From IMG/VR virus record IMGVR_UViG_3300020204_000008: 64,000 nt of DNA. One strand, written 5' to 3'. The position numbers and the translations under genes were made by a program. The DNA is from a virus. Position 1 is the first letter of the stretch. The number at the start of each line of letters is the position of its first letter. The notes under the pieces were generated by a model. That model was not told where the DNA came from and ran no database searches. It was given only the letters and a program-made list of their open reading frames with translations. Shown piece after piece: positions 11,014-62,431 of this stretch.

Positions 11014-11676
11014 TCAATATCCTTCGGAATCTTCGGGATTTTGATTTAACTCTTTTACCCAGTCAGGTACCTCTCCAAACGGGCTCTCTTCGTCCTCCAT
11101 CGGATTCATACCAAACGCCTCTTCTTCAAACTCTTCTCCATTTTCAAATCTTCTAAGCATTGCCTCGATCTGACGCAAGTCTGACGCCGTATTATTGAAA
11201 GCAGTTGCCTCTTGACGATATTCATCTTCGCTCCAATCATTTGAGTCTTTTTCATACTCTCCTTCTAACTCATCTTCTAATTCAGCATCCAATTCGTCTT
11301 CTAACTCATCATCTACCTCTTCGTTAATGAATCTAGTAAATGAAGAATAGGCTCTGCCCTCTTCTACCGGTTCGATCTCCACTACTGGAATTCCAGTGAT
11401 TCGATCGTCATAGGTAAACGGCTTCTTCTTTTCTTGCTTGTATACAAGATCTCCGGTCATTGCCTTGTAAGTAGGATCGTATACTGGATGAGAAAAAGCA
11501 GGGTCTCTCTCAACTGTTCGTCTAAACCCTTTAAGTTTAGGATCACGATCATTCATATTACCTCGAGCATCTCTTAATTCAATCGCAGAGCTGGGTCCAC
11601 CGAATCCAGGTTTCTTAAGGTCCATATAATTATCGAAATTTAAGATATCTCGACGGTGTGTATCAAACATTTCCAT
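11014..11676 (-). CDS. acidic virion-associated hypothetical protein with CTS-like motifs
   Basis: ILNFDNYM and YSSFTRFINE motifs; downstream of the tail tube gene. Confidence 0.7.
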   Translation of the reverse strand: MEMFDTHRRDILNFDNYMDLKKPGFGGPSSAIELRDARGNMNDRDPKLKGFRRTVERDPAFSHPVYDPTYKAMTGDLVYKQEKKKPFTYDDRITGIPVVEIEPVEEGRAYSSFTRFINEEVDDELEDELDAELEDELEGEYEKDSNDWSEDEYRQEATAFNNTASDLRQIEAMLRRFENGEEFEEEAFGMNPMEDEESPFGEVPDWVKELNQNPEDSEGY

Positions 11677-11691
11677 TTTTATCTCGATTTT

Positions 11692-12267
11692 TTATACGTT
11701 AATCTGACCTATTCTGGTTTCCACCCAGTAGTCTGATCGATATTTCATCTGTACATCATAAATACCGTTTTCAGTATAATTTAGTGAAAGTTCAGTTAAT
11801 TTATCGTTTGGAATAACCGATTGAAAATTCCACTCTCTAAAGATCTCACCAGTCTTATTAGCCACGTGAACTGACATCGAACCCACATAGTCTCTTTTTA
11901 ATCCCTGACTACCCGTTTGAGGATTGTAAACGATATCGTTCCATGCTCTAAGGATATTATAAACGTATGCGTCATTCTCTTCATTTAAGTTGACTGTGAA
12001 CTTGATAGTCAAGTCAGCAGTTGTGGTGTCTGGAATTCCTCCAGCAAAGGATCTTTTTGCAAACTTGTAAGTCTGTTCAACTAACGTTCCGCTAGAATTG
12101 ATTTCAGGCAGACCTGAAATCTCGGTCACGTGCTCCACTAAAAGAGCTACATTGCTACCGGAGATTACTGTCGGTGGGTTCAAGATCACCTCAAACTGAT
12201 TCTTATAGATCGGTTCATAGTATGATCGAGCCGCGGCTGAATTGGTCCAATATGGTAAACCTGCCAT
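11692..12267 (-). CDS. gp19: tail tube protein (gp19-like)
   Basis: NQFEV, R.FAG, LTIKF, LRAW...YNPQTG..GLKRDY, W.F..V.P, DYW. Confidence 0.85.
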   Translation of the reverse strand: MAGLPYWTNSAAARSYYEPIYKNQFEVILNPPTVISGSNVALLVEHVTEISGLPEINSSGTLVEQTYKFAKRSFAGGIPDTTTADLTIKFTVNLNEENDAYVYNILRAWNDIVYNPQTGSQGLKRDYVGSMSVHVANKTGEIFREWNFQSVIPNDKLTELSLNYTENGIYDVQMKYRSDYWVETRIGQINV

Positions 12268-12286
12268 TGTGTATCGATTATTTTAG

Positions 12287-12294
12287 TTATTTAT
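12287..12294 (-). promoter_or_regulatory. late promoter ATAAATAA
   Basis: T4 TATAAATA-like; one of about 18 copies; overlaps the upstream stop codon. Confidence 0.7.
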
Positions 12295-13420
12295 TTTGCG
12301 GTTGAGCAATATTTTTTTCGGGCACCCTTGGTTCCTGTGTTTCTTCAGTATTCTCCTGTTCAAGATCCTCTCCCTCTTCAGTGTCTATTATTTCAGAAGC
12401 AGGCGCCTCCTCAATGTTAAATAGGTTTTCAAAATCAATGTTAGATCTGATCGATACTTGAGAAGATCGGTTTGAGTAGTTATCTATCTGTACTCGGTCT
12501 CCCTTGAATTCCAATACTAAGGAAGGTAAGATAGTTCTAAAAATCAGCTCATTCACGTTTTCGATAGGATCGTATACCATGATCTCAGAGATCTTGGGTT
12601 CGGTCGTGTTGTCTATCGTTAAAGACTCGTTATTGATTAGGGTGTTTTTACCCGACACCTTTACCTTAAATCCGTCCCAGCTATTGATTGCCTTGCCGTC
12701 AAGCGTGTCCACCATGCCAGTAGATAACTTAAGAGTCACGTTAGGTGAACCTGTATCAAGCCCGCTGGTCGAGACCTCACGTAAGACCATTCGATCTACC
12801 GTAAACCTTACCTCATAGTGTGTGTTGCTAAAATACTTATCGTTGATCGCCTTGATCTGAGCAGAAGTCAGCTTTGTGGTAAATAAAACCTCGTCCACTC
12901 TTGATTCAGAAGTTGCCTGTGGAAGACCGAGTGGAGCAGGCGGCCCTGAAGGCAGAGACACTTGACCTTGACCGATTCTCTTTTGCGGTTCAGGTAGCCC
13001 CAATGGAGGATTTGGACCAGCCGGTAATAGATTGTTCCAATCGTCGTCAGTCAGGTCAGTCTCAACCGGTTTAGGGGTCTCTTCTTCTGGCGTCACCTCA
13101 GCAGGTAAACCGTCCATCTCTCGAGCATAGTCCGGATTGAGTAGTCTCTTGATCGCCTCACTGGCAAGCTCAAACTTTCTTTTAAGTAGATTTACTTCAC
13201 TTAAGATGACATAAGTAAGAGTGGCATGGCCCTCTTCAAAACGCATGTCTGGAAAGACGTCTACCTGTTTAAGCCAGCCCTGGATATTTTTTTGATCGAG
13301 CGCAGTCTCACCGTTGACGATTGACCACGAAAGGTCGTAGTTTAGGATTGCTTGAAAGATGAAACCTCCGTCTTTTGAACTAGCCTCATCAGAATACGCC
13401 TTTTCAAAAATTTTATCCAT
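12287..13420 (-). CDS. hypothetical structural protein with Pro-rich linker
   Basis: 377-aa ORF in a late operon. Confidence 0.7.
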   Translation of the reverse strand: MDKIFEKAYSDEASSKDGGFIFQAILNYDLSWSIVNGETALDQKNIQGWLKQVDVFPDMRFEEGHATLTYVILSEVNLLKRKFELASEAIKRLLNPDYAREMDGLPAEVTPEEETPKPVETDLTDDDWNNLLPAGPNPPLGLPEPQKRIGQGQVSLPSGPPAPLGLPQATSESRVDEVLFTTKLTSAQIKAINDKYFSNTHYEVRFTVDRMVLREVSTSGLDTGSPNVTLKLSTGMVDTLDGKAINSWDGFKVKVSGKNTLINNESLTIDNTTEPKISEIMVYDPIENVNELIFRTILPSLVLEFKGDRVQIDNYSNRSSQVSIRSNIDFENLFNIEEAPASEIIDTEEGEDLEQENTEETQEPRVPEKNIAQPQNK

Positions 13421-13677
13421 TAGTCTTTTTTACGATCTCTCGTTCGTTTATAGTTCTTCCAAAGCTCGTTATAGATGTTACATGAAGCCCCTAAAAAGTT
13501 GATGATACCGACGTATTTTTTCTTGTCCTCTCCTTCCATATTAGCGACCTTGACACCAATCTTCTTGGCATCATTGATCGTAAGCTCTTCATCCTCGTCC
13601 TTACCGACTAGCTTCTTAAGATCGCCCTTCTTTTCAAGTAGAGCGTATTGCTCAAATCTCATGATAGCTCTATTCAT
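13420..13677 (-). CDS. small CTS-motif protein (putative internal head protein)
   Basis: MNRAIMRFEQYALLE. Confidence 0.65.
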   Translation of the reverse strand: MNRAIMRFEQYALLEKKGDLKKLVGKDEDEELTINDAKKIGVKVANMEGEDKKKYVGIINFLGASCNIYNELWKNYKRTRDRKKD

Positions 13678-13696
13678 TGGTCTTAGATTTTATTAA

Positions 13697-13930
13697 TTAC
13701 TTCTTCTTACCTACCACGTTCTTGTTCTTTGCAGTAGTCATGTATTGTTTAGTATACTTATCAAGTTGAGGAGTTCCTTTTCCCTTAACTGGACCTTCAA
13801 CTAAACCTTGATTGATCTTCATCGAACCCGATCTATCGTTTGCCGCAACGTTAGCTTTTCCACGGTATCCCGCTTCAGCCTTTTTGAATGCTGCCATAAA
13901 CTGGTTATAGTTCATAACTGGATTTGCCAT
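13697..13930 (-). CDS. small basic CTS-motif protein
   Basis: MANPVMNYNQFM; late motif at 13949..13957. Confidence 0.65.
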   Translation of the reverse strand: MANPVMNYNQFMAAFKKAEAGYRGKANVAANDRSGSMKINQGLVEGPVKGKGTPQLDKYTKQYMTTAKNKNVVGKKK

Positions 13931-14015
13931 TATACTTTTATTTTTTTATTATTTATCTTTTTAATCTTAAAGAATTTTTTGTATATTAGCTATATAACCA
14001 ATTAAATTTAAAGCC

Positions 14016-14468: not shown

Positions 14469-14484
14469 TCTAGCCCATCTTCAT

Positions 14485-14514: not shown

Positions 14515-14533
14515 GTTTAACTAATTATTAGAT

Positions 14534-16303
14534 CTAGATGTTATCTTCTCCAGCAGGGGTTGCTTTTTCAATATGAGTAACGTATCTTTCTTCTGGTATG
14601 TCTACTTCCTTTATTAATTTAGGATTATTAGGATCAGTATAATCCATTAATTTGACTTTCATCGTGCCTTTTTCTGTTCCAGGTCCAACTACGAATATTT
14701 TTTTCGTATCAGTTCCCCCTACTTCATTCGGTGGAGTCGATTTGTCAAATATTACGATCTCTTGTTCAGGCTTTAATTCCTTAAACTTGATTCGGTTTTC
14801 CTTGACTGCACGATTTGCCTTTTTCTCAGCCTTTGCTGCCGCTTTTTCTTCAGCTTTACCTTCTCCTTTTCCCCAACCAATTGACGTAACTAGTCCAGGC
14901 GATTTCCAACTAGCTGCGACCGTATACTCTTTTATTGTAAGCGCATCGTAGTTTAGAGTAACCTCACCAGTCTCAGTCACATTGATCCATTTAGTAGGTA
15001 GTTTTCTTTTTTCAACCCTGTCTCCAGTTATAAAGAAGTTAACTACCCTCCATTCAGGTGCAGTATTTACATTATTATCTGGTTGAACTACTGCCGGTGT
15101 CCCAGCCAATGAGACCTGTACGCCCTTCGGCGCTCCAATTTTTGTAACAAACCATTGGGCTCGTCTTGTTGCAAGTGCCATGTTCTGTTTATCATCTCTT
15201 GCGCCAGCAGTCCATTCCCACGATGCGGATCCTTGAACCTTAATCGAAGTTATTTTTGAATACTGTCCAAGGATCTGGTTCAATGCTTCAAGGATAGCTT
15301 TTTCCTTTGTTGGATCTGGTTTATCCTTTCCTTGACCAAATAGTGCATCTAATCCGGGCAATGATGTCAATTCATCAGTTACTTGAACTGCCTCTTCTCC
15401 TCCTTCTATTGGAACGCTTACCGTAGTCGTTGTAAATTCTGTATATGGCTGGCCTCCTCCTTTAACAAAATCAGTCACAGTATAGAAAACAAACTTCTTC
15501 GTAAGGCTTTCATTCAGCAATCGTTTCGGGTCCTCTGGGAAATCCTTAGGTGTAAGTCCTCCCCCAAGTGAACTTGATGCTGGAGGAGAGCTCATATTAT
15601 ACTTTAAGTTTGATCCGTCCCACATAAGAATTGTTTGACTCAAATTAGCTCCATTTATATAACTGGCCCGATATGGCCAGTACGCTTTTCCCATAGTTTT
15701 TTTGGTTTCGTCCATATCAAAAGCCGGCTTATCGTTTAATTTCATATCCTTCATCCTCTCAATCGTCAATCCATCCGCATAAACCTTCGAAGTTACTGTT
15801 TCAAGTTGTTTAAACATTTCCTGATGATTTAGTGCGCTTATTGATTTACATATAGCTGGAGCGGACGTCCATATTACCTCAGTTTTATTTAACGTCGGAA
15901 CCTTTAAACCTTTAGCCGTTTTTATTTGAATCGATTTAACTGTTGTATTAAACGTTGGCTTTATGTATTTTTCGTTAGAATTAGTTTTAGTAAATTCAGC
16001 TACCGCCGATCCAACGTCAACAGTTAAGCTACTTGTAAAATGATTTTTTGTAAGGTTGTCAGTCGATGCCGTCATCCAACCGACCTTAGCATTCTGTTTC
16101 CATTCATTAATAAATGTAGCATATGCTTCTCCCATTGCTGTAGCTATGTCCCCCATTTTACTAACCAGTGATTCAATGCTAGTTTGTGAATTCACTAAGT
16201 TTGCAACAGTCTGCTCATTGACCGCTTCTCGGTATCGTTCATCATTCACAACTGATTCGTGAAGAGTTCTCCACATATTATAGTTTAATAAATAACCACC
16301 CAT
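14534..16303 (-). CDS. putative internal virion protein with OmpA-like C-terminal domain
   Basis: N-terminal LNYNMWRTLHES; LFGQGK..IKVQGSAS..NMALATRRAQ..RVVNF OmpA_C pattern; late motif at 16323..16331. Confidence 0.65.
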   Translation of the reverse strand: MGGYLLNYNMWRTLHESVVNDERYREAVNEQTVANLVNSQTSIESLVSKMGDIATAMGEAYATFINEWKQNAKVGWMTASTDNLTKNHFTSSLTVDVGSAVAEFTKTNSNEKYIKPTFNTTVKSIQIKTAKGLKVPTLNKTEVIWTSAPAICKSISALNHQEMFKQLETVTSKVYADGLTIERMKDMKLNDKPAFDMDETKKTMGKAYWPYRASYINGANLSQTILMWDGSNLKYNMSSPPASSSLGGGLTPKDFPEDPKRLLNESLTKKFVFYTVTDFVKGGGQPYTEFTTTTVSVPIEGGEEAVQVTDELTSLPGLDALFGQGKDKPDPTKEKAILEALNQILGQYSKITSIKVQGSASWEWTAGARDDKQNMALATRRAQWFVTKIGAPKGVQVSLAGTPAVVQPDNNVNTAPEWRVVNFFITGDRVEKRKLPTKWINVTETGEVTLNYDALTIKEYTVAASWKSPGLVTSIGWGKGEGKAEEKAAAKAEKKANRAVKENRIKFKELKPEQEIVIFDKSTPPNEVGGTDTKKIFVVGPGTEKGTMKVKLMDYTDPNNPKLIKEVDIPEERYVTHIEKATPAGEDNI

Positions 16304-24003: not shown

Positions 24004-25659
24004 TTATACTCCACTTTCTACAAATGAAGTAGAACCTGTAAGAACTCCAATAGCCTCTGGATCGATCTCCATGCTTACGTATTGAGTTTCAGGGTGCCAT
24101 CCTGCTTCAGTAATCGCGTATCTTGATTTCATACCGATTTTTGGAGAGAATGTTCCTTCAGAAATAGTCTGAAGAGATTCAGCCATGATGTATGGCATGA
24201 ATTTAACACCTGGTTCTTCGTCTGCTCCTTTACGCCCGATCGCAAGTCTAGAATCTCCCCAAGACAGGTTAGGGTCAACATAAACTTGTACACCGTAAAC
24301 TTTACCAGCTGGGTAAAGGTTACCTGCAACTCCACCAATATCGGTTGGAACTTGTGCGATTGAGTAACCAGCAACATCAGCCATTGCAGAAGCAATACGT
24401 CCGTTAGTTACTAAGAAAGTACCAGCTCCGAAACGTCCCCTATGGTAGATTAAGTTAGCAAGTTCAAGAACTTTAGTAACTAATCTTCTTTGTAGAGTAG
24501 ATGTGTTATCGAATCCACCAGCAGTCAAGTCAAGGTTAGTTACACCTGCACCTTCAACTAATGCAACTTCAGCAGAGTGAACGTCAGCTAATTGTAATAC
24601 TCGGTCAACTAATCTTTTGTTGATTGATTGAGCTAAGTCATTAACTGCTACGTTTTCTAACATAGAGATAACGTCATAATTCCAAACTCTGTTTAAGTCT
24701 TGGATTTGCTCAACAGTTGCAGAGATAGACACTTGGTCAGTCTCAGCCTCAACAAACTTAGTGAACATTCTTAATCCCATTTGACGGAATTTAGAGTTTT
24801 CACCAGCCTCTCTCCTCATTGATCCAGGAACGTCTCCTGTAGCAGGAAGGTAAGAACCGTTGAATGCAGTAGTTGCGTAATCTGCATCAGATACAGATGT
24901 GAAACCAGAGATGTGGTTTTCCAATGCAGAAACTAGAGAAACTCCAGTTGCAACGCCAGAAGAAGTATCACCATTGATAGTGATAGTGTTAGTAATGATT
25001 GATGAAGCTAATGTGTTAGTACCGTTATCTTCGACTACTTTAGCGATCAACTGACCGTCAACGCGAGAGTAACCTACGAATGTTAAATCAAAATCACCAG
25101 CACCAGATCCACCAACTGTGATTACATCACCAGGAGCTGGAACCGTGCTGAAAGAAGCTGAAGTAACTCCTTCGATTTTAACTAAATATGGATCGAAATC
25201 ACCAGCACCAGTTCTACCACCTGCATATAAATAATCCAAGTAAGGAAGGAATCCAACTGGAGAATCCATAGGGATAACTGGAACTAGGTCGAAACCAATA
25301 GTTTTTGCAGCTACTTGGATAGCAACTGGAAGAAGAGATGGGAATTTATCGCCAGATCCGTTTCCTGTAGCAGTGTAGCTGTTTTTTACACCAGCTGAAA
25401 AAGGAGTACCTCCGTTATTGAAAGTAGGTGCTTGTGGATTTCCCATAAAACCACCAAGAGAACCTGGAGTTTGGAAAAATACACCTGGAGCAGTGGATTC
25501 AAAGATAGGTGTAGTGTTATCAAAGATCGCGTGGTTGTGAGCGTACTCAGCTAACCATGGAGTCTTAGCAACATCAGCACCGTAACCTTCTAAAATCGGC
25601 TGCCATGTGTTCGTTAAGCGATTGTCGCTTGAACGTCTGAAAATTTTAGTACGTGCCAT
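24004..25659 (-). CDS. gp23: major capsid protein (T4 gp23-like)
   Basis: WQPILE, DLVPVIPM..P.G, E..QDL, INKRLV, VYVDP, FMPY, TFSPKIGMKSRYA. Confidence 0.93.
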   Translation of the reverse strand: MARTKIFRRSSDNRLTNTWQPILEGYGADVAKTPWLAEYAHNHAIFDNTTPIFESTAPGVFFQTPGSLGGFMGNPQAPTFNNGGTPFSAGVKNSYTATGNGSGDKFPSLLPVAIQVAAKTIGFDLVPVIPMDSPVGFLPYLDYLYAGGRTGAGDFDPYLVKIEGVTSASFSTVPAPGDVITVGGSGAGDFDLTFVGYSRVDGQLIAKVVEDNGTNTLASSIITNTITINGDTSSGVATGVSLVSALENHISGFTSVSDADYATTAFNGSYLPATGDVPGSMRREAGENSKFRQMGLRMFTKFVEAETDQVSISATVEQIQDLNRVWNYDVISMLENVAVNDLAQSINKRLVDRVLQLADVHSAEVALVEGAGVTNLDLTAGGFDNTSTLQRRLVTKVLELANLIYHRGRFGAGTFLVTNGRIASAMADVAGYSIAQVPTDIGGVAGNLYPAGKVYGVQVYVDPNLSWGDSRLAIGRKGADEEPGVKFMPYIMAESLQTISEGTFSPKIGMKSRYAITEAGWHPETQYVSMEIDPEAIGVLTGSTSFVESGV

Positions 25660-25686: not shown

Positions 25687-26928
25687 TTACAATCTAGAAC
25701 CTGCGTTTCTCAACATCGTTTCTAAGTAACCTTGAGAGTAACCTCTCTGCATCTCAACAACCTGATTTACAGGTATTAGGCCTTCTGTACTTTGGCTTTC
25801 GTTGAGTTGTTGCGTTATTTTTGTGTTGTATTTTTGTGCTTCAATTCTTTCATTGATTCCTCTCATATCTAAGTCATCCCAAAATGCTTTAACTTGGTAT
25901 GGAGTGTTTACAGTATAAAGCTGTGCTTTTGCATGAACTTTACTTTGTTCTTTCTCATTCATCTCGCTCCAGATAGCTTTATATTCTGCTGGCATGAATC
26001 TAATATAAGTAGGAATGTTTTGCTCTTTATTGTTTACTACTGCTTCCATGATTCCAACGATATCGTTTTCGTTAAACCATACAGATCCGTTAAGAGCTTC
26101 AACAATCGCTTGTTTAGTGTCTGATTGTAAGTTAAAGAATACTTTCTTGTTTGCCTCTCCCATAACTTTTAAGAAAGGGTGTTTGCTTTCAAGAACTGCT
26201 TTAGAAGACTTATCGTTTACTTCAGTGATCACTTGGTCAACCTTAGAGATTAGGTGATCGATTGAAGACTCATTTAATTTAGAAACCGATCCAAGAACGT
26301 TTCTTCTACCTACAGTAGTTCCTTCTCCTAAAGACTCAGCGATATATTCAGAGTAACCGATAGATTGGCCTAACTTTTCAGCAACATACTGAGAATATTC
26401 TCTATTTAAGTTGATGTTTTCTGAAAGGTATTCTCCGAACTCGATAGAACGGTTAGTCCCTTCAGCAACGTATTCAACATACTGTAATCCCTTGTCTAAT
26501 TCTTCAGCCAAGTAATTTTGGTATTTAATAGAGTTGTTTACGTTTTCTTTAATGTATTCTGCGTAGTTAATTGACTCATTCAATTTAGATGAAAGGTAAT
26601 CTTGATAGTTAACTGACTGGTTTAATTTTTCTCCTAAATAAGAAGAATAATCGATTGAGTTGTTAACTGTCTCAGAAACGTGCTCAGTATATCTAACTGA
26701 CTCGTTTAGTTTGTGAGAAAGATAATCAGCGAAATTGATCACTCCTTCTAACGATTCTGCTAAATAATTTACGAATCTAATTAATTCAGGATTGCTTGAT
26801 CCATTATTTGATTGTGCAGACTCTAAAACAGACTTGTGATTCTTAAGTTCTTTTTTAATTCCATTGAATTGTGTTTTAAGAACTTCTGAATATTTGTCCA
26901 TTTGTTCTTTTGTTACAAACTCGGCCAT
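25687..26928 (-). CDS. putative nested in-frame scaffold protein (starts at Met245, 413 aa)
   Basis: Internal GATAAATAA at 26993..27001 and an A-rich leader before in-frame ATG (MAEFVTKEQ). Confidence 0.55.
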   Translation of the reverse strand: MAEFVTKEQMDKYSEVLKTQFNGIKKELKNHKSVLESAQSNNGSSNPELIRFVNYLAESLEGVINFADYLSHKLNESVRYTEHVSETVNNSIDYSSYLGEKLNQSVNYQDYLSSKLNESINYAEYIKENVNNSIKYQNYLAEELDKGLQYVEYVAEGTNRSIEFGEYLSENINLNREYSQYVAEKLGQSIGYSEYIAESLGEGTTVGRRNVLGSVSKLNESSIDHLISKVDQVITEVNDKSSKAVLESKHPFLKVMGEANKKVFFNLQSDTKQAIVEALNGSVWFNENDIVGIMEAVVNNKEQNIPTYIRFMPAEYKAIWSEMNEKEQSKVHAKAQLYTVNTPYQVKAFWDDLDMRGINERIEAQKYNTKITQQLNESQSTEGLIPVNQVVEMQRGYSQGYLETMLRNAGSRL

Positions 26929-27660
26929 TGTGTTGTTATTTTTTTGTTCTTGCAAAGTCCCTTGGAACTGTGTTCCTGAACCATTTTCTAATTTATTTAT
27001 CTTATAGACTTTAAAATTATCTGCAAAGTTTAAATTTTCTGAAATATCCATTAGTCCAGACTTATGAACAAAAGAGTTTTCCTTCATCGAGTTATAACTC
27101 TCAGTGATCATTGAAAAATCATTCTTTAGGGATTCACTAACCGTTTTACGTAAGATCGCATCCGTGAATCCAGGCTCTCCGACCAAGTCATAAGTAAAGA
27201 TTCTCTGTAACTTAACGTGTCCGCTCTCACCTACCTGTCCAGCCGCTCTTGAAGAAACTGATAATTGAACTCCTCCATCGAGTAAAGCTTTCGCTAATTT
27301 ACCGTGTGGAGTGTTTTCTAAGAGTCTAACCTTGATATAAACCTTATCTCCTCCGTCATAGTTAATACTCTCAATGATGTGAGAGGCTTCGCTTAATTTT
27401 GGTTCGAAATGTTGAGGATGGTCTACCGTTCCTACTAATTGTCTCTTAGAGATTTTTTCTTGAAGATAAGTAAGATGAGGTAAGTATTCCGATTTTTCAT
27501 ATACTCGTCGGTTGTTATTCATTTGACCGAATACCGCACATACTCCTTCAAGGACAGTGCCAGTGTTAGATGAATCCCTTACTTGAAGTTTTTCACCCAC
27601 GTTTTCAACGATTAATACCCAATCGTTGTTGTTAATTTGTGCTGAATTTAATTTTGACAA
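25687..27660 (-). CDS. gp21: prohead protease (gp21-like) fused to a scaffold/core domain; TTG start
   Basis: LEG, N.N.RVY, G..DHP, SH.I, TPHG, VSSRAAG, TYDLV.EPGF; then a long coiled coil with 14-aa repeats. Confidence 0.9.
   Translation of the reverse strand: MSKLNSAQINNNDWVLIVENVGEKLQVRDSSNTGTVLEGVCAVFGQMNNNRRVYEKSEYLPHLTYLQEKISKRQLVGTVDHPQHFEPKLSEASHIIESINYDGGDKVYIKVRLLENTPHGKLAKALLDGGVQLSVSSRAAGQVGESGHVKLQRIFTYDLVGEPGFTDAILRKTVSESLKNDFSMITESYNSMKENSFVHKSGLMDISENLNFADNFKVYKINKLENGSGTQFQGTLQEQKNNNTMAEFVTKEQMDKYSEVLKTQFNGIKKELKNHKSVLESAQSNNGSSNPELIRFVNYLAESLEGVINFADYLSHKLNESVRYTEHVSETVNNSIDYSSYLGEKLNQSVNYQDYLSSKLNESINYAEYIKENVNNSIKYQNYLAEELDKGLQYVEYVAEGTNRSIEFGEYLSENINLNREYSQYVAEKLGQSIGYSEYIAESLGEGTTVGRRNVLGSVSKLNESSIDHLISKVDQVITEVNDKSSKAVLESKHPFLKVMGEANKKVFFNLQSDTKQAIVEALNGSVWFNENDIVGIMEAVVNNKEQNIPTYIRFMPAEYKAIWSEMNEKEQSKVHAKAQLYTVNTPYQVKAFWDDLDMRGINERIEAQKYNTKITQQLNESQSTEGLIPVNQVVEMQRGYSQGYLETMLRNAGSRL
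26320..26775 (-). repeat. 11 tandem 14-aa repeats, (Y/F)xxY(L/V)xExLNxS(I/V)x
   Basis: e.g. YSSYLGEKLNQSVN YQDYLSSKLNESIN YAEYIKENVNNSIK. Confidence 0.85.
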
Positions 27661-42064: not shown

Positions 42065-42628
42065 TTAGATTTCTGGTTCAGTAGGTTTCGGTGCTGGTTG
42101 AGCAGGTTCAGTCGCAGGTTTAGCTTCCGGTTCTGGCTTTTCTTCGGGCTTCGGTGCTGACATTGCTTTTCTAATACTTTCAGAGTCAATGCTTATCGAT
42201 AAGCTACGCAAGTTATCAGAATCTTCAGGATTAGCCTCAAAGTATTCGATTACTTTTTTCAAATTGACGTTATTCGCCTCTTCGCCAAACCCTCCAGCAT
42301 CCTCGATCTTTTTTCTAAGGTTTTTAGCCGCTTTCCAGGTTCCGCCGTAGCTTAGTGACCAGCAGTAGAATCTCACCTGTTCCTGTTTACTGTCATAATA
42401 GTGCAAAATATCCTTGATTCTTTGAATAGCTCCATTTGCATCACGATATGTCGTTGCTCTACCTAAGTTATCTGAAGGAACTCCAAACCTTACTTGATCT
42501 GATAGAACCTCCATTAGTTCCTCAATTCGAGTGATCAGCTGATCTGCTGGATAACCCTTTAGAGGAGAAGCAGCTTCTTCTGCTTCCTTAATGTATTGTA
42601 AATAGCTTGGTATGTATTTGCTAGCCAT
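42065..42628 (-). CDS. CTS-motif protein with Pro/Glu-rich tail
   Basis: MASKYIPSYLQYIKEAEE; late motif at 42645..42653. Confidence 0.65.
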   Translation of the reverse strand: MASKYIPSYLQYIKEAEEAASPLKGYPADQLITRIEELMEVLSDQVRFGVPSDNLGRATTYRDANGAIQRIKDILHYYDSKQEQVRFYCWSLSYGGTWKAAKNLRKKIEDAGGFGEEANNVNLKKVIEYFEANPEDSDNLRSLSISIDSESIRKAMSAPKPEEKPEPEAKPATEPAQPAPKPTEPEI

Positions 42629-43885: not shown

Positions 43886-44377
43886 ATGACTAAATACATC
43901 AAGCTGTACGAAGACTATCAACAGGACATCAAGACCACGACTGAGGAGACCGGCCACACTTGGACTCAAATCAGAGATGCGATCCAGACCAAGATCCCAT
44001 TCGTGATAATCACCTTTAAGGACAAGGAGAGCTATACTTCTGCTCTTGATTCTGATCTTCTCGATGACGACTACATAAAACAGTCTGCTGCAATCAGTCA
44101 CGACGGTAAGTTAATAGACTATCCGTCCATCTTTATGGTGCTTGATGACGATGTCGAATTTAAAGATAAGATACCACAAATCTTTGAAAAATATAAGATT
44201 AAGAACCTGATTCTTGGTAAAAAAGGAGAGGAATACGTAGACTATTATTTTGAAGACGGCTCGACTTCACCGGCAGGAAACGAAGTAGTCTCTTCAATCA
44301 GTAAGGACGATATGGAGAATGACGAGCATTTCAAGATAGGTTCTACATACTACAGGTTTGTCGATTTTGTGAGTTAA
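43886..44377 (+). CDS. CTS-motif protein; probable start ATG 43886
   Basis: MTKYIKLYEDY; late motif GATAAATAA at 43855..43863. Confidence 0.7.
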   Translation: MTKYIKLYEDYQQDIKTTTEETGHTWTQIRDAIQTKIPFVIITFKDKESYTSALDSDLLDDDYIKQSAAISHDGKLIDYPSIFMVLDDDVEFKDKIPQIFEKYKIKNLILGKKGEEYVDYYFEDGSTSPAGNEVVSSISKDDMENDEHFKIGSTYYRFVDFVS

Positions 44378-47596: not shown

Positions 47597-47604
47597 GTCG
47601 TTTT
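47581..47604. terminator. bidirectional terminator hairpin
   Basis: AAAACGACCT-gagt-AGGTCGTTTT. Confidence 0.8.
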
Positions 47605-47666
47605 ATGCTATTTTAAAAAAAAGAATATCTTTAATCATTATATAATACCTCGGTGAAGTTAATTGA

Positions 47667-47924
47667 TTATTTTTGTCTTTTTATTACATTACGAAGTATT
47701 TCAACAGTCTTATTGTCGAATTTACCTGTAACTTTGGGAGCATGTGTTTCTTGAAATCCTTTAAGTGCCTCAACTGTTTCTGAGTCAAGTTTTCCGGTCT
47801 GAGACACACCCAACACGTTTTGAAAACTTTTCAATTCTTCCTCAGTTATGATTGGACCTCCAGGACCAGCGACTTCGTTTACAAACTGACCGAATGTTTT
47901 TACGTGGTTCTTATTCATCATCAT
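47667..47924 (-). CDS. CTS-motif protein with peptidoglycan-binding (PGBD-like) repeats
   Basis: HVKTFGQFVNE; LKSFQ..LG...TGKLDSET and LKGFQ......TGKFDNKT. Confidence 0.7.
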   Translation of the reverse strand: MMMNKNHVKTFGQFVNEVAGPGGPIITEEELKSFQNVLGVSQTGKLDSETVEALKGFQETHAPKVTGKFDNKTVEILRNVIKRQK

Positions 47925-47940
47925 TATTATTTATTTTTAT

Positions 47941-49453: not shown

Positions 49454-50116
49454 ATGGAAGATAAATCAAAACAAATTAAAAAACTTGATCTTAAGCAGAA
49501 TGCGATCAAGATCTTAATCAACTCTATTTATGGAGCATTTGGGAATAAGTGGTTCTATTTCTACAATCCCGATATTGCCCAATCAATTACGATACAGGGC
49601 CAAGACCTAATCAAGTTTTCAATCAAGGCCGTGAATCACTACTTCCTAGAAAAGTGGCACCTTGACACCGACCTGCATAAATTATTGGGTCTAGAAGGTT
49701 ACACGATCAATAAGATCGAGGATGAGGCTGCTATCTACACGGACACTGACAGTGTGGTAGCAGACACTATTATTACTAGCGGAAAGTATGGCAGTTTATC
49801 AGTCGAGGATTGGTATGATCTCAACGTCTCAAATGGATCAGCCGGTAATACTCTTGCTGGTCATGAATCAGTAAAGGTCGATTCGTCTGATTCAATTTTA
49901 AATTGGGATAAGTCAAATGGACTACATGAATCTAGAGTAAAGCGAATCATTCGACATCGAGTTACTAAAGAAAGATGGAAGCTAACTACTGAATCCGGAA
50001 AGACAGTTATTGTTACTGGAGACCATTCACTTATCGTGTTTAGAGATAATGTGCAACTTGAGATAAAAGCCCGTGATATTAATCCGAAAACCGATTTAGT
50101 TTTAGTAGTAAAATAG
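49454..50116 (+). CDS. gp43: DNA polymerase B middle piece (motif B to YTDTD) fused to split-intein N part (49751..50113)
   Basis: KQNAIKILINSIYGAFGN, YTDTD|SVVADT; block B VTGDHSL; promoter motif at 49420..49447. Confidence 0.95.
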   Translation: MEDKSKQIKKLDLKQNAIKILINSIYGAFGNKWFYFYNPDIAQSITIQGQDLIKFSIKAVNHYFLEKWHLDTDLHKLLGLEGYTINKIEDEAAIYTDTDSVVADTIITSGKYGSLSVEDWYDLNVSNGSAGNTLAGHESVKVDSSDSILNWDKSNGLHESRVKRIIRHRVTKERWKLTTESGKTVIVTGDHSLIVFRDNVQLEIKARDINPKTDLVLVVK

Positions 50117-53706: not shown

Positions 53707-54015
53707 ATGAGAAGAATCATGAATTTAAGAGAGTTTCGAATAAACGAGATGGAGGAACCGGAAATGCCATTTGAGATGGACGAGTCCCTACTTGACGAAT
53801 TGGTAGAATTAGTCGGATCTGAAGAAGATGTCGAAGAGGCGGCTGGGGATGCATACGACGACTTGGCAGAAGCTGCCGAGAGCGGAGAGATCGAGATGAC
53901 AGAAGAGGACATGCCGGAAAAACTAGTAATCGCTGCTCTTCTAGTTAAGCTCGTAGAAAAAGGAAAGCTTGGCCCAGACGATGCTGATGGACTGATCGAA
54001 AAATACTTAGGATAG
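53707..54015 (+). CDS. acidic CTS-motif protein
   Basis: MRRIMNLREFRINE; late motif at 53681..53689. Confidence 0.7.
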   Translation: MRRIMNLREFRINEMEEPEMPFEMDESLLDELVELVGSEEDVEEAAGDAYDDLAEAAESGEIEMTEEDMPEKLVIAALLVKLVEKGKLGPDDADGLIEKYLG

Positions 54016-55220: not shown

Positions 55221-56948
55221 ATGAGTGGATTTTTAGACACATCAGGAAGAAAAACAAGCGGTACCCTATCGAACTTAAGTAAGTTCGGTACTCGACACGA
55301 GGACCTCCTACTTAGAAACTCACAGGCGATCGGTTTTATCGAGAGTCAGTTGCAGTCTAGGACGTCTCGGCTTAACGCAAACGATGAGTTGCTTAAGTTT
55401 TCAATGGCGATCTCAGACACGACATCCCAATTAAGAACTAAAGCCATTGCATTTTTTCAGTTGGACTATGTGGTAAAAAGGGAAAGACTAAGAGACGTTG
55501 CAGCAAACGGTGAAATCGAGTTTATTCTTGAGACCATCGTCGATGACATGATAGTATACGATGAGGAACAAAGATTTGTGCATCCTAAGGACCTTACTGG
55601 AAAGATGCTCTATCGTGGAGACACTAAAGAAGAGCGCCTAAACTTTCAGGAAAAGGTGCTTAAGAAATATACTGATAATTTTGAACGCATCTATAACTCT
55701 TGGAGCTTTGGAGAGGGAATCTCTGCATGGCAGTATGCCTTTCAGTTCCTAGTTGAGGGCCACCTCTCTTTTGAGATCATCTATGATAACTTAGATAAAC
55801 CTAAAGAGATAATTGGATTCAAGGAATTGGATCCCGCTAGCATAGCTCCTCAGTTACAGAAGGACGCTAAAGGCAAGATCTTCTTGCAGTGGCTACAGTA
55901 CGACCAACAGACTGGTTCTACTAGAGTGCTTAATGATTCACAGGTGATCTATATCTCGTATGCCAATCACTTTAGGACCAAACGAGTAAGTTTCGTTGAG
56001 CGACTAATCAGATCGTTTAACCTATTAAGAATCATCGAACACAGTAAAGTTATTTGGCACGTAATGAACGCTCCGATTCGTCTAGCAACGACCGTGCCGA
56101 TCGGAAGTAAGAGCTTTCAAAAGGGTCAAGAGGACGTTCGTGAGTTCCTAAACATGTTTAAAGAAGACATCTACTTCAATGGAGACACTGGAGAACTAAA
56201 CGTTGAGGGCAAACCTAACATCTTATTCTATAAGAACTATATCATGCCAGTGAACGATCAGAATCAGCAGGTAAAGATCGAGACCCTACAGACTCCCGGA
56301 CCAAACCTATCGGGTTCAGAGCTCCTAAACTATTTCTATAAGAAATTAAAGATGGACTCCAAGATTCCTTATTCTAGATGGGAGGGTCAGTCTGGAATGG
56401 GTGCATTTACCCTTAATGCTGAGGGTATCACTAGGGAGGAGGTTCGTTACCAGAAATTCATCAATCGATTGAGGACTGCGTTTTCGGAAATGATGGTCAA
56501 GCCTTGGTACTTACAGATGTGTTTGGACTTTCCCGAATTAGCGGATGACTATAAGTTTAATAACGCTATTGGAATCAAGTATTACAACGATAACGTGTTT
56601 GAGGAGATGAAGAAGAACGAGATTGAGGCAAAACGAATAGCTTCTTTCCAAGGCAAAAAAGGAGTCATGAAAGACGACGGCACACCTTACTTCTCTACTG
56701 AATACTTGATCAGAGAAGAACTTAAAATGACAGATTCTGAGATTAAAGCTAATCTTGCATGGTTCGATCAAAAACCAGATGCTGAAGAGGCCGAAGAGCT
56801 TCCGCCTCCTCCAGGAGGTGCTGCTCCTGGAGGAGCTGCTCCTGCCGGTGGTGGAGGCGGTGCTGCCGCACCGGCTGCCGCTGCTGCTGAAGGCGGAGGT
56901 AGTGAAGTAAAAGACGGAGGCGAGACTTCCGGTGAAGGCCAACTTTAA
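55221..56948 (+). CDS. gp20: portal protein (gp20-like)
   Basis: R..A...EI...LE.IVDD.IV, F..EG, LDP, N.LR..E...VIW...AP.R, IETL..G.NL, YF.KKL.....P.SR, ITREE..Y.KFI.RLR. Confidence 0.93.
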   Translation: MSGFLDTSGRKTSGTLSNLSKFGTRHEDLLLRNSQAIGFIESQLQSRTSRLNANDELLKFSMAISDTTSQLRTKAIAFFQLDYVVKRERLRDVAANGEIEFILETIVDDMIVYDEEQRFVHPKDLTGKMLYRGDTKEERLNFQEKVLKKYTDNFERIYNSWSFGEGISAWQYAFQFLVEGHLSFEIIYDNLDKPKEIIGFKELDPASIAPQLQKDAKGKIFLQWLQYDQQTGSTRVLNDSQVIYISYANHFRTKRVSFVERLIRSFNLLRIIEHSKVIWHVMNAPIRLATTVPIGSKSFQKGQEDVREFLNMFKEDIYFNGDTGELNVEGKPNILFYKNYIMPVNDQNQQVKIETLQTPGPNLSGSELLNYFYKKLKMDSKIPYSRWEGQSGMGAFTLNAEGITREEVRYQKFINRLRTAFSEMMVKPWYLQMCLDFPELADDYKFNNAIGIKYYNDNVFEEMKKNEIEAKRIASFQGKKGVMKDDGTPYFSTEYLIREELKMTDSEIKANLAWFDQKPDAEEAEELPPPPGGAAPGGAAPAGGGGGAAAPAAAAAEGGGSEVKDGGETSGEGQL

Positions 56949-58491: not shown

Positions 58492-58494
58492 GTT

Positions 58495-58938
58495 CTATTG
58501 ATTTTTACCTGTACCGTTTCCTTTTTCATCACTAAATCTAACGCTAGATTTGTCTACGTCTAATTTGAAATCTCGATCTCCCATCATTCTACCCATCGCA
58601 CGTTGATTCTTTTTAGCGATCACGTTATCCTGTTTACCTGCTCTTTCCATAGAGTTCTTCATCACTTGATCCAGTGCTTGTGTCTTCATCTTCTTTTTCC
58701 AATCGCTGTGAAAGATCATGTTCATTGCTCTAGTGATGTCCACCTCTTGCACATGTCCGTCATATCGACTTGGGTTTCTAGCTGCTTTTTCATTGGCTAA
58801 CTCTCTAGCTATAGCCATAATCGAAGTATAGAGTCCACCAAGTGCGCCTTGCACCATGCCTTTAAAATTAGTTAGGTATACAACTTCTTTAGTCGATTCA
58901 TTTATGTATTGATGATATGTTTTTATCTTTCTTTCCAT
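58495..58938 (-). CDS. CTS-motif protein
   Basis: MERKIKTYHQYINES. Confidence 0.7.
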   Translation of the reverse strand: MERKIKTYHQYINESTKEVVYLTNFKGMVQGALGGLYTSIMAIARELANEKAARNPSRYDGHVQEVDITRAMNMIFHSDWKKKMKTQALDQVMKNSMERAGKQDNVIAKKNQRAMGRMMGDRDFKLDVDKSSVRFSDEKGNGTGKNQ

Positions 58939-59240
58939 TATGTAGCAGGTGCAGCAGGAGTTGCTGGTTGTTGTGGCCGGTTTGCAGCTGCGTTTTGAGC
59001 GGCAGCTGCGTTTTTAGCAAGAGTATCGCCTAATACTTTTTTGCGGTCCTCAATAGCCTTCTCCCAAAGGTTTATCTGAGTCTTATGCTGAAGTATCTTT
59101 GCGCTTAGGTCCTTTAGGGTCGGGTCAGTCAGCATCACGTCTTCCTCCTTGATCATTTGCGGATTCGCTCCTGCTTCTACCTCTTTAGCTGCCTTTTCTT
59201 CAGCGTTTTGAAAGCTCTTAAAATTCTTTACGTAAGCCAT
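58938..59240 (-). CDS. CTS-motif protein
   Basis: MAYVKNFKSFQNAEE; late motif at 59259..59267. Confidence 0.7.
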   Translation of the reverse strand: MAYVKNFKSFQNAEEKAAKEVEAGANPQMIKEEDVMLTDPTLKDLSAKILQHKTQINLWEKAIEDRKKVLGDTLAKNAAAAQNAAANRPQQPATPAAPAT

Positions 59241-59258
59241 TTAATTCTCTCTTTTTTA

Positions 59259-59534
59259 TTATTTATTCGTAAACTTCTTGTGAGCCTCCACGAATTCATG
59301 ATATGACATGACTCTAGTCTTTTTGTCCGCTCTAGGATTGGATCCGAATGCGCTGGTGATCCTACTTCCGCTCAAGAACGGAGAATTATTCCAATGGGAT
59401 GGAATGGTCCCAGAAGCGCCCGAATAAAACATCATGGCGTTTGCACGTTTAGTGTCTGGTTCCAATATCCTTTCTGCATGATCTGGTTCCATTGAGATAG
59501 CGCCAAAACCCTCAATCAGTCTTTTTAACTTCAT
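59259..59534 (-). CDS. small protein with CTS-like motifs
   Basis: MKLKRLIE at the N-terminus and VMSYHEFVE at the C-terminus. Confidence 0.65.
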   Translation of the reverse strand: MKLKRLIEGFGAISMEPDHAERILEPDTKRANAMMFYSGASGTIPSHWNNSPFLSGSRITSAFGSNPRADKKTRVMSYHEFVEAHKKFTNK

Positions 59535-59535
59535 C

Positions 59536-59991: not shown

Positions 59992-60060
59992 TTTCTAAAG
60001 GTTTATTTTATAGTGTTATTTATTCTGAAACCCAACGACCGTTTTAAGATATAATAAATT

Positions 60061-60309
60061 ATGAATGAAAAAGAAATATCTGCGGCTTCTGCTGCACTAA
60101 AGATGGAACTTACTAATTCCATTCTTAATAAATTAGAACAGATCAAGGAAAAGATCAATTGTGGTCAGGGTTCAGACAAGTCTTCTTATTATAAAATGCT
60201 GATCGATATTGATGAAGAACTTGATGATGTTCTACTTAATTGGGAATATTCTCCCATAAATCCTCGACTCTCTTTTCCGGACTCAGATGGTCTAGATGAT
60301 GATTATTGA
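60061..60309 (+). CDS. hypothetical protein
   Basis: 82-aa ORF; AAAC-N18-TATAAT at 60028..60055. Confidence 0.65.
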   Translation: MNEKEISAASAALKMELTNSILNKLEQIKEKINCGQGSDKSSYYKMLIDIDEELDDVLLNWEYSPINPRLSFPDSDGLDDDY

Positions 60310-60767
60310 TTTATATCTACCGTAAACTTGCCGGCCTTAAGAAAGTTTCGTCCGAGGATGCAATCATATTTCATGTTTGACCTATCAGTAAGGGATACCT
60401 TTATCAAGAACTCCTGCTCTCCAAACTTAACTATCGTCTCGATCTGATATCGATCTTGGCTTTCTCCAGTTGAGCTCTTCACCTTTATCTTCTTAAATTC
60501 CTTAAAGTCTAGTCTTTTTTTGGGAGATTTGATCCAAAAATAAAGCGTCCCATCCTTCTCCTCTATTCCATTCGCATGAATTGCAGTATTGTCTGCACCA
60601 GTATCGATTTTAGATTTTATCCTAGTTATTCCCAATTCAGGAAAAGACACTTTTTCAACGTGTGAAACTGATTTAGGATTTGAACCATAAATGGTCCATC
60701 CGTCCGGTCCTTGATTGATCTTAGCCAAGTCTAGGAACTCTCTAAAGCTTTCTACTATTCTTATCAT
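60303..60767 (-). CDS. retropepsin-like aspartic protease (RimK-associated family) with CTS motif
   Basis: KIDTGA, VKSS.G....R, SLTDRS.M.Y..ILGRNFL; N-terminal IVESFREFL. Confidence 0.85.
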   Translation of the reverse strand: MIRIVESFREFLDLAKINQGPDGWTIYGSNPKSVSHVEKVSFPELGITRIKSKIDTGADNTAIHANGIEEKDGTLYFWIKSPKKRLDFKEFKKIKVKSSTGESQDRYQIETIVKFGEQEFLIKVSLTDRSNMKYDCILGRNFLKAGKFTVDINQ

Positions 60768-61370
60768 TTAGTGTGTGGTAGTTAGTGCTCCTCCTAGAGA
60801 AGATGCGTGTACGCTTAGATGATTGGTGTCATCCTGATCAAGCTTCACCTTTTTCTTAGTGTAATCTATTCCAAGTACTCCAATAAACTTGTCGTCAATC
60901 GTCTTTATCGCAAACAGGTATCCTGATTTACAGCCAGATTCCTCAGCTATGTATTTTAATCCGTATGTTGCTATCGTATCGTCTTTATAGTCAGCGATCT
61001 CAATCGTATCTCTCTCTAGAAGCCTGTTCATGGACTTAGTGAATAGGTTTACTGGGATATTTTGAAAATTGCTCTGAATCGAGGTTGTGTTCGGAGACAC
61101 CGTCTCGTATATGACGCTAAACTTGGCGATAGATTTTCCAGTAGGATAAAAATGTCCACCGTTATGAAACTGAGTCACCCAAACTCGATCTGCTTTAAAC
61201 TCTTCCCTGATCTGATCCATTTTAGCCGAAACAAGTTCGCCAGTCTTTAAGGCATCAGTCAACAGGTCAGGTTTCGCTCTCTTATCTAACCAATTCTTGA
61301 TCAGGATAATCAATAATGGTCCAATGACACCAGTGATAAACGCGATAACGATCGGAGTAAAAGAATCCAT
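60768..61370 (-). CDS. single-TM, GAF-like protein; putative T4 gpT-like holin
   Basis: N-terminal TM helix; KADRVW..QFHNG, FS..YE, FIGVLGIDY. Confidence 0.6.
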   Translation of the reverse strand: MDSFTPIVIAFITGVIGPLLIILIKNWLDKRAKPDLLTDALKTGELVSAKMDQIREEFKADRVWVTQFHNGGHFYPTGKSIAKFSVIYETVSPNTTSIQSNFQNIPVNLFTKSMNRLLERDTIEIADYKDDTIATYGLKYIAEESGCKSGYLFAIKTIDDKFIGVLGIDYTKKKVKLDQDDTNHLSVHASSLGGALTTTH

Positions 61371-61393
61371 TTCTTAAGAATTAGTATTTTTTA

Positions 61394-62431
61394 TTACATG
61401 TTACATCCACAAGAGTATCCATACTCGTTTGAGATCGGAACTTCTCCACACATTTGACATTCGTCATCTTCTGGATACATTCCGAACCAGCCGCTCTTTT
61501 CGTCATTCCACTCTTTTTCTGCCTGTCCTTGTGCATAATAGTTATGACCTCTTTCTCGACTCGCGAATGCTGCATCTTTAAATATTACTGATGCAAGCGC
61601 AGTTACCCCTAATGCTGCTGCTATTCCTCCACTGATAAACATTGCAGCCGGTACTATTCCCAATCCTGCAACTGCACCAGTATAATTAATTATCTTATGA
61701 ATGATCTTTCTGGCTTCGAATTCGTTCTTGTCCATTCCAAGTTGTTCATAATCTCTTTCTCTAGGATTAGACCCAAATTCAGCTTCCTCAAGCTCATCCT
61801 TAACCAGTTCACTGAACTCTTCAGGATTGTTTTCTAAATAATCTTTAAGTATTTGCTTTTCTCGATTGCTTAATTCATCGACCGCTTCTTCTGCTTGGGC
61901 AGAAACCTCCTCACCTTCTGATCCTTCTTCTTGAGAAAGATAATCTCCATGGATTCCCATTTCATCATCGGGATTAGATCCATATCCGCTATATGATTCA
62001 TTCACAAATTGACTAAATCCTTTTACTAGAGAAAAACCTTCTTCTACTTTCTTCTTAGGGTTTGCACCGGCTTCTGGATTTCCTTCTTCAACATCATCCT
62101 CTTCGGATTCTTCAGTCTCTTCACCTTCAGTCTCTTCTTCCTCAGGCTCGTTCTCTTCTGTTTCTTCATCTTCCACTGGGGCATTCATACCTTCAGTGTT
62201 TTGTGTTGAAAATGCAGGAGAACCCTCCTCTCCAGGCCCGGCCGGAGTAGCTTCATAGCTTCCAGAAACCGGTCGGTTTGGTCCTATTTGGGGTTGGTCA
62301 TATGTCTCATCATCAAAGCCTTCTTCGAAATTTGAGGCAGCATTCGTTAGGTCATCTACGCTTGATGGTTCGTTGCTTGCGTTAGAATATTTATCAGAAA
62401 ATTCTAAAAAATTTAAAACTCTACCTGGCAT
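61394..62431 (-). CDS. acidic CTS-motif protein with hydrophobic hairpin and C-terminal Cys cluster
   Basis: VLNFLEF and internal VKGFSQFVNES; AVAGLGIVPAAMFISGGIAAALGVTALASVIF; CQMC..CGC; late motif at 62450..62458. Confidence 0.7.
   Translation of the reverse strand: MPGRVLNFLEFSDKYSNASNEPSSVDDLTNAASNFEEGFDDETYDQPQIGPNRPVSGSYEATPAGPGEEGSPAFSTQNTEGMNAPVEDEETEENEPEEEETEGEETEESEEDDVEEGNPEAGANPKKKVEEGFSLVKGFSQFVNESYSGYGSNPDDEMGIHGDYLSQEEGSEGEEVSAQAEEAVDELSNREKQILKDYLENNPEEFSELVKDELEEAEFGSNPRERDYEQLGMDKNEFEARKIIHKIINYTGAVAGLGIVPAAMFISGGIAAALGVTALASVIFKDAAFASRERGHNYYAQGQAEKEWNDEKSGWFGMYPEDDECQMCGEVPISNEYGYSCGCNM

Follow-up and report, generated by a model that had tools for sequence, protein, structure and literature searches.

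The question raised by this stretch of DNA is why a whole series of its proteins, with nothing else in common, should carry the same short peptide. The stretch (64 kb of the IMG/VR virus record IMGVR_UViG_3300020204_000008, here called the window) comes from an uncultured, distantly T4-like phage, and the peptide, or tag, has the clade consensus [IV]-K-[ST]-[FY]-x-x-[FY]-[IV]-N-E. A preliminary description of the window had compared this motif with the T4 internal proteins’ capsid-targeting sequence. We consider it likely that the motif is a T4-type tag for targeting to the head core and for processing there, borne by about a dozen proteins in the window and by 12–21 or more in each related genome. 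Many different proteins, known here from their genes alone, would then probably be packed into the particle.

The window carries portal, major capsid protein, baseplate, neck, and replication genes. A megablast search of 20 kb of it against GenBank phages returned no match. The best matches to its portal and protease (30–38 per cent) are unannotated metagenomic ‘huge phage’ records, with phages PAU, Lak, and PTm1 next, and portal identity to any GenBank phage is at most 38 per cent. IMG/VR holds many relatives (56–97 per cent identity, contigs up to 430 kb), of which three were scored alongside the window: G1 (94 per cent, 176 kb), G2 (70 per cent, 207 kb), and one complete 430-kb genome. The tag system is retained in relatives spanning ~200 kb to 635 kb. 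Genes are named below by their left coordinate (e.g. 58495 for 58495..58938), and tag positions are residues of the encoded protein. A conserved motif, GATAAATAA, lies ~20–30 nucleotides upstream of the head genes, the tagged genes, and many others. From its likeness to the TATAAATA motif of T4 we take it to be a putative late promoter, and genes were classed as late or other by this motif together with operon position.

All eleven N-terminal strings quoted in the preliminary description were found at the starts of their genes, and its four internal or C-terminal strings were confirmed in genes 11014–11676, 61394–62431, 59259–59534, and 36395–38353. As a simple regular expression (h-x-x-Ar-x-x-Ar, where Ar is an aromatic residue), the motif has a per-position rate about six times higher in the first fifteen residues of proteins than in their interiors. 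To avoid circularity, a position-specific scoring matrix (PSSM) was trained on twenty tagged families of relatives without any member in the window. Among the 19,749 positions of the window, the nine that score highest with this matrix all lie in late genes, and seven of them are at residues 4–8. These seven are the N-termini of 47667 (the best score in the window), 58495, 58938, 42065, 13697, 60303, and 61394; the remaining two positions are an internal copy in 61394 and a C-terminal copy in 59259. N-terminal matches of at least 9 bits numbered nine in the window, against 0.15 expected from shuffled proteins of the same composition. The corresponding comparisons with shuffled proteins were 18 against 0.4 in G1, 12 against 0.75 in G2, and 21 against 0.75 in the complete 430-kb relative.

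A de novo search led to the same motif. A Gibbs sampler given no prior pattern recovered it in 25 of 87 non-redundant N-termini of genes close to a putative late promoter. In a set of 186 related loci with 1,118 open reading frame (ORF) families, the motif is in excess at start positions 1, 4, and 5; tags are found in 109 of the families, of which 44 have at least two members. Family alignments, more than PSSM scores, back the weaker members of the window’s set: 53707 at 6.5 bits, 43886 at 4.2 bits with a shorter class of tag, 13420, and two N-termini, those of 36395 and 11014.

Could such a pattern arise by chance or composition, from shared ancestry of whole genes, or from a nucleotide signal at the start of late messages? 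The genome is AT-rich (GC content 35–43 per cent), a bias towards K, N, I, F, and Y, and the tags lie near a conserved promoter. We nevertheless give these explanations scarcely any credence. A composition artefact was rejected by the shuffles described above. Once the tag is removed, the tagged proteins are mutually unrelated (all pairwise E > 0.07), and paralogy was rejected on this ground. The conserved tag residues use differing codons and stand at varying distances from the ATG, starting anywhere from residue 1 to 8, so that conservation is at the level of protein, and a nucleotide-level signal was rejected as well. Within families, moreover, the tags are conserved while the adjoining residues change.

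The preliminary description had also linked the motif to late genes, and this link holds in each genome where it was assessed. In the window, eight of 39 late genes are tagged but only one of 41 others (Fisher test, p = 0.013). The counts are 17 of 120 against 1 of 91 in G1 (p = 7e-4) and 12 of 117 against none of 131 in G2 (p = 9e-5). An equal frequency of the motif in non-late genes was thus not observed.

T4 itself provides the closest comparison. Its internal proteins IPII and IPIII start M-K-T-Y-Q-E-F-I-A-E, and IPI starts M-K-T-F-K-E-F. The clade’s preferences for K, S/T, I/V, and E agree with T4 at positions that the selection pattern leaves unconstrained, and when the clade-trained matrix is run over the whole T4 genome, IPII and IPIII rank second and third of all positions. 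The identification of the motif as a counterpart of the T4 capsid-targeting sequence is borne out by both results. The top match in that scan is gp61.1, a hypothetical protein of 54 residues (NC_000866, 18966–19130) with the N-terminus M-K-T-F-K-E-F-I-K-E.

As in T4, where the sequence is found on IPI, IPII, IPIII, and Alt (Mullaney and Black 1996; reviewed in PMC9026906 and PMC3012670), a peptide of about ten residues stands at the N-terminus of unrelated late proteins, has two aromatics three apart, followed in most of the tags by aliphatic-x-Glu, and shares its genome with a protease of the gp21 family, a scaffold, and a gp23-like capsid protein. There are also differences. Whereas T4 has three internal proteins plus Alt, about a dozen proteins are tagged in the window and 12–21 or more in each relative. 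The clade tag usually begins at residue 3–8 and the T4 tag at residue 1; before the Glu, the clade prefers Asn where T4 has Ala. Finally, the clade includes a W-containing subclass, a short subclass, and C-terminal copies.

The head machinery that such a tag would serve is present in the window. Gene 25687 matches the PHROG head maturation protease (E = 6.6e-34) and Pfam PF03420 (39 bits, above the cutoff of 27). Its first ~160 residues form a protease of the gp21 family (S77), 29 per cent identical to T4 gp21, and its His81 and Ser137, which are invariant in fourteen relatives, align with the catalytic His85 and Ser140 of T4. The remainder of the protein is scaffold-like, with a long predicted helical region and a C-terminal helical domain (residues ~490–620) that is confidently modelled. 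Between residues 296 and 449 (DNA 26314–26775) lie eleven repeats of fourteen residues, conserved in twenty-three relatives, with the consensus Y-[TAS]-E-Y-[LVI]-[AS]-E-x-[LV]-N-x-[SG]-I-x. The repeats are more regular in huge phages: the 430-kb genome has thirteen copies with Y-S-E-Y-L-A-E spacing, and record LR745206 (635 kb) has eleven. AlphaFold models had a low mean predicted local distance difference test score (58 and 50), and their usable parts were the protease domain, the scaffold C-terminal domain, and the OmpA-like part of 14534. In the single-chain model, the repeat region was helical at low confidence, and no docking in cis was seen.

Protease and scaffold are joined or nested in other viruses too, as in lambda C/Nu3, P2 gpO, and the herpesvirus protease/assembly protein. 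The clade resembles these in that its protease and scaffold share one reading frame, and differs in that its protease belongs to the S77 (T4 gp21) family and its scaffold has a regular array of fourteen-residue repeats. In T4, gp21 and gp22 are encoded by separate genes, whereas in the window protease and scaffold are fused. An exact copy of GATAAATAA lies inside the protease-scaffold gene (window 26928–27001, minus strand), with an in-frame Met245 ~65 nucleotides later. The internal motif is at the same place in 13 of 13 relatives checked, and Met245 is invariant, which suggests that a scaffold product may be made separately from a nested gene. The protease-scaffold and capsid genes have immediately upstream of them a gene (27707–28714, minus strand) that encodes a DnaJ-domain protein of 335 residues and lacks a late promoter motif of its own. 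The propeptide of the capsid protein 24004 likely ends at an aliphatic-x-Glu site around residues 52–54, the predicted position of cleavage.

Tag and scaffold repeat share a core, aromatic-x-x-aromatic-aliphatic-x-Glu, and the likeness extends to T4, as can be seen by setting the repeat Y-S-E-Y-I-A-E of a huge relative beside Y-Q-E-F-I-A-E of the T4 tag. The shared core could come from a common protease specificity or from docking of the tag as a mimic of the repeat. The strict 7-mer Ar-x-x-Ar-aliphatic-x-E occurs fifteen times in late proteins, eight of these being scaffold repeats, and twice in non-late proteins, with 3.8 expected overall. Conservation of the tag and repeat residues at the depth sampled was too high for informative co-variation.

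The two halves of the motif have separate roles in T4. As the review PMC9026906 sums up the mutagenesis by Mullaney and Black, the aromatics at residues 4 and 7 are what chiefly matters for targeting, while Ile 8 and Glu 10 matter for processing; Asp at position 10 stops cutting and leaves targeting unaffected. In the window, 10 of the 11 N-terminal tags have two aromatics three apart; in the eleventh, 53707, the first is Leu, and relatives have Phe there. A following aliphatic-x-Glu is clear in 47667, 58495, 42065, 13420, 14534, and 53707, as it is in the internal copies of both 61394 and 11014. This division into two parts agrees with what is conserved in the clade. Because T4 separates targeting from processing in this way, tags that lack the Glu can be explained.

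These same observations bear on whether the motif might be only a maturation-protease site on structural and core proteins, with no part in recruitment or in delivery to a host. The scaffold has the 7-mer in repeated copies, whose obvious use there is to be cut, several of the tagged proteins are acidic and core-like, and T4 gp23 is cut at a comparable F-x-x-F-L-x-E sequence (F-G-S-F-L-T-E). We think this unlikely all the same. It is the aromatics that are best conserved, and T4 mutagenesis ties these to targeting rather than to cutting (PMC9026906). The Glu is missing in several tags and in all C-terminal copies. A structural role is also hard to reconcile with the small orphans of a hypervariable slot and with domains that bind the wall but have no export signal (both described below).

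Under the targeting-and-processing interpretation, the prohead core would be built late in infection from the gp21-family serine protease fused to its helical scaffold. Tagged proteins would dock into this core via the two aromatics and the aliphatic residue that precedes them, and the capsid shell would close round it. The aromatics are followed by aliphatic-x-Glu, and the protease would then cut behind this Glu, freeing the mature protein inside the head; the scaffold would be chopped at the eleven similar sites that it carries itself. What we infer is that the tagged proteins dock, that they are cleaved, that they stay in the head, and that they are delivered to the next host. A more specific version, which we hold tentatively and think somewhat doubtful, is that the tag is a one-unit mimic of the fourteen-residue scaffold repeat. 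Cargo would join the core by repeat–repeat contact or through the substrate groove of the protease, the tag would be effective at either terminus, and a single conserved ‘head address’ would serve phages from T4 to those of 635 kb.

Several points weigh against the targeting-and-processing interpretation. All of the support for this clade is comparative, and the late promoter is defined by a conserved motif and not by transcripts. Aliphatic-x-Glu is absent or shifted in 4 of the 11 N-terminal tags (13697, 60303, 58938, and the N-terminus of 61394), and cleavage at these four is uncertain because no clean aliphatic-x-Glu directly follows the aromatics. Short amphipathic helices with a pair of aromatics are widely used for docking; a T4 protein the size of NrdB, for example, scores 12 bits at its C-terminus. 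Finally, 36395 is surrounded by tail genes, and its product could belong to the tail and use a similar peptide for another contact.

The last two points lead to another possibility, namely that the peptide docks late proteins not to the head core but to some other partner, such as a DnaJ-domain chaperone, the membrane, or a part of the tail or baseplate. The DnaJ-domain gene immediately upstream of the protease gene would suit this, as would the tag-like ends of 36395 and the generic nature of amphipathic aromatic peptides as docking elements. It is distinctly improbable in our judgement, given that the peptide is nearly identical to the experimentally defined capsid tag of T4, that it shares its core with the scaffold repeats, and that most tags end in the aliphatic-x-Glu typical of gp21 sites. 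The features on which the argument draws are collected in Table 1.

Table 1. Head genes and tagged or tag-like genes of the window, with protein length, tag position, and PSSM score or other support; distances after ‘late promoter’ refer to the putative late promoter motif.
Gene	Strand	Length (aa, amino acids)	Feature	Tag or tag-like segment (aa)	Score or support
25687..27660	-	657	Prohead protease of the S77 family (gp21-like; aa ~20-160) with fused scaffold		PHROG, Pfam
24004..25659	-		Major capsid protein, gp23-like		PHROG major head protein; BLASTP to T4 gp23 E=5e-20, full length
55221..56948	+		Portal, gp20-like		tblastn to annotated portal proteins and T4-like phages
47667..47924	-	85	Peptidoglycan-binding domain	7-17 (DNA 47874-47906)	25.5 bits; late promoter motif directly upstream
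58495..58938	-	147		4-14 (DNA 58897-58929)	21.3 bits
58938..59240	-	100		3-10	20.8 bits; late promoter -26; family 19/19 tagged
42065..42628	-	187		5-15, ends aliphatic-K-E	17.5 bits; late promoter -24
13697..13930	-	77	Small, basic	5-11	15.4 bits; late promoter -26
13420..13677	-	85	Small, basic	4-15, ends L-L-E	Regular-expression match at residue 5
60303..60767	-	154	Retropepsin-like domain (Pfam PF05618, E=5.9e-15)	4-11	14.9 bits
61394..62431	-	345	Acidic	5-11; internal copy 136-145 (DNA 61997-62026)	12.0, 12.8 bits; late promoter -26
14534..16303	-	589	OmpA-like peptidoglycan-binding domain	5-16, W-type	9.9 bits; late promoter -27
53707..54015	+	102	Very acidic	3-14, variant (Leu for first aromatic)	6.5 bits; late promoter -25
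43886..44377	+	163		4-11 from ATG at 43886, short class	Family 30/36 tagged
59259..59534	-	91	Degenerate N-terminal L-x-E propeptide	C-terminal copy 75-83	C-terminal copy 14.6 bits
59536..59991	-	151	Pro/Glu/Gln-rich	Conserved N-terminal I-K-R-L-x-E	Family alignment; late promoter -32
36395..38353	-	652		Tag-like N-terminus; tag-like extreme C-terminus 641-648	Both ends family-conserved
11014..11676	-	220	Acidic	11-17 (tag-like); internal copy 110-119	Internal copy 5.4 bits

The tagged set is probably mixed, made up of core components on the one hand and of internal or ejected proteins on the other. Four of its members (53707, 61394, 11014, and 59536) are strongly acidic or of low complexity and recall the T4 core proteins gp67 and gp68 more than they recall enzymes; these would be core components. 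In the 53707 family (n = 52), relatives have F or S at the position of the first aromatic, and the N-E after the tag is conserved. Gene 11014 contains the strict 7-mer at residues 113–119, and its N-terminal segment is conserved in relative L018. Gene 59536, whose N-terminus is akin to the short ones of T4 gp67 and gp21 (L-I-E), is a candidate core protein with a propeptide of the cleavage type only.

Small orphans in plastic loci would be the internal proteins that travel with the DNA, namely 47667 and the genes that share its slot, 58495, 58938, 13420, and 13697. Together with 42065, the last four are orphans; for 58495, searches of Pfam and PHROG found no family. PHROG and Pfam likewise gave no family for most of the tagged proteins, and two protein-atlas look-ups yielded no usable lead. 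The 58495 family has forty-four members among relatives, thirty-nine of them tagged, and its gene stands in a late operon behind 58938–59240. In the 42065 family, 20 of 34 members were scored as tagged, some of the ORF calls having extended starts. The tag of 13697 is retained in L018, G1, and G2, and 13420, which follows 13697 in the same late operon, has an L018 homologue that retains the tag with other residues. The late promoter motif of 43886 lies just upstream of its ATG, within a longer ORF call, and the late operon beginning at 62431 ends with 60303.

Two tagged proteins carry domains that bind the cell wall. Gene 47667 consists of nothing but the tag and a Pfam PG_binding_1 domain (E = 3.6e-13). 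In 14534, the confidently modelled part matched MotB, TagL, OmpA-C, and Pal domains in Foldseek (E from 2e-4 to 1e-2), and there was a weak Pfam match to OmpA. This protein has a second, weaker copy of the tag at residues 61–67, and the tag is present in its homologues; a search of viral contigs with the 589-residue protein found no relative. A signal peptide was found in neither 47667 nor 14534. Since they have wall-binding domains with no signal peptide, ejection from the particle would be the most sensible way for them to reach the wall, an indirect hint of delivery into the host, and they would act in the periplasm after ejection.

Gene 47667 occupies a hypervariable slot downstream of PhoH, in the gap between PhoH and a convergent uvsW-like gene (window 47600–47940, and the matching place in loci L028–L130). 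Across relatives, this slot holds zero to three small genes drawn from twenty-four families. Eleven of these families are strongly tagged, and about six more have the short class M-K-[YH]-[IL]-K-L-[YF]-E, as in 43886. Ten of the slot’s cargos were searched in Pfam, and neither there nor in PHROG was any assigned to a family. A constant tag on a variable body in one slot is also what is seen in the hyperplastic internal-protein loci of the T-even phages T2, T4D, and T6 (PMC9026906, PMC3012670), though the clade is far more distant, its slot families number twenty-four, and its cargos are known here only as sequences. The preliminary description had envisaged a much expanded cargo of ‘effectors’. 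An expanded tag set on unrelated proteins, including those of the hypervariable slot, stands; the word ‘effectors’ is too broad, several of the proteins being acidic and core-like.

Copies of the motif away from the N-terminus had been proposed as marks of polyprotein processing. Internal matches are at chance level overall (four in the window against 1.7 in shuffled proteins, 1 against 5 in G2, and 12 against 11.6 in G003), with an excess only in G1 at a high threshold (5 against 0.8), so that the proposal is unsupported as a general one. The exception is the 61394 family. Its twenty-seven unique members, down to 34 per cent identity, keep both the N-terminal and the internal motif while the acidic spacer between them varies, an arrangement that resembles a long propeptide bounded by the two sites. 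After a variable and highly acidic middle part, every member of this family closes with a conserved Cys motif, C-x-x-C ... C-G-C-N-M, that reaches the last residue of the protein. Three of them, the window’s copy included, have an extra module of ~130 residues with a hydrophobic segment.

C-terminal copies are enriched in two relatives (3 against 0.2 and 5 against 0.3) but not in the 430-kb genome, and two families, 59259 and 36395, have conserved them. In 59259, the copy is kept in twenty-eight unique members, down to 27 per cent identity, and diverged members of the family have a canonical aromatic tag at the N-terminus. The copy in 36395 scores only 6.6 bits. This is a late gene beside baseplate genes, and because it sits there its assignment is ambiguous; searches of PHROG, Pfam, and the protein atlas found no match for it. 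G1 (8858–10075 and 153031–153498) and G2 (156402–156863 and 167184–169031) also encode late proteins whose tag stands at the extreme C-terminus; it ends in F-I-N-S or F-I-N-D and has no Glu, and one of these proteins has a tag at both ends. By the T4 data, C-terminal copies without Glu would target without being cut.

Outside the T4 group, the nearest parallel is with SPN3US, phiKZ, and 201phi2-1, whose ejection proteins have long propeptides that are cut by the prohead protease (PMC5694885, PMC7411985). These phages likewise load many head-internal proteins through propeptides, with cutting after Glu by a gp21-related protease, and the 61394 family, with ~135 residues between its two motif copies, is reminiscent of their long propeptides. 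Their propeptides differ in being at least 100 residues long, in having no common short tag, and in a cleavage motif of the form small-x-Glu (A/S/G-x-E), whereas in the clade it is the short aromatic tag of T4 type that predominates.

Some further features of the window were noted. At 7–276, 49454–50116, and 2082–3694 (plus strand), two things stand out: the DNA polymerase appears to be in separated pieces that lie far apart, and a UvsX/RecA-like gene is followed by an ORF resembling the C-terminal part of an intein. Several HNH-like ORFs lie at 50–53 kb. Directly after the tagged gene 42065, in a late operon, is a gene (40179–42053, minus strand) whose product of 624 residues has an RNA-ligase-like N-terminal domain and a cytidylyltransferase-like domain.

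The literature searched reports the T4 capsid-targeting sequence from T4 and its close relatives only, and it has been put to use as a tool for protein delivery. With the same address on at least a dozen unrelated proteins per genome in a widespread clade of uncultured phages of 200–635 kb, the code would be ancient. Sequence could then serve to predict which proteins of uncultured phages are internal or ejected, and the large pool of small orphan proteins in plastic loci would be candidates for first-wave factors of host takeover or anti-defence. If the tag does mimic a scaffold repeat, the packaged proteome of uncultured phages of the T4 superfamily would become readable from sequence alone. 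It would also supply a mechanism for the T4 tag, and the likeness of tag and repeat suggests a testable answer to the question of what that tag binds.

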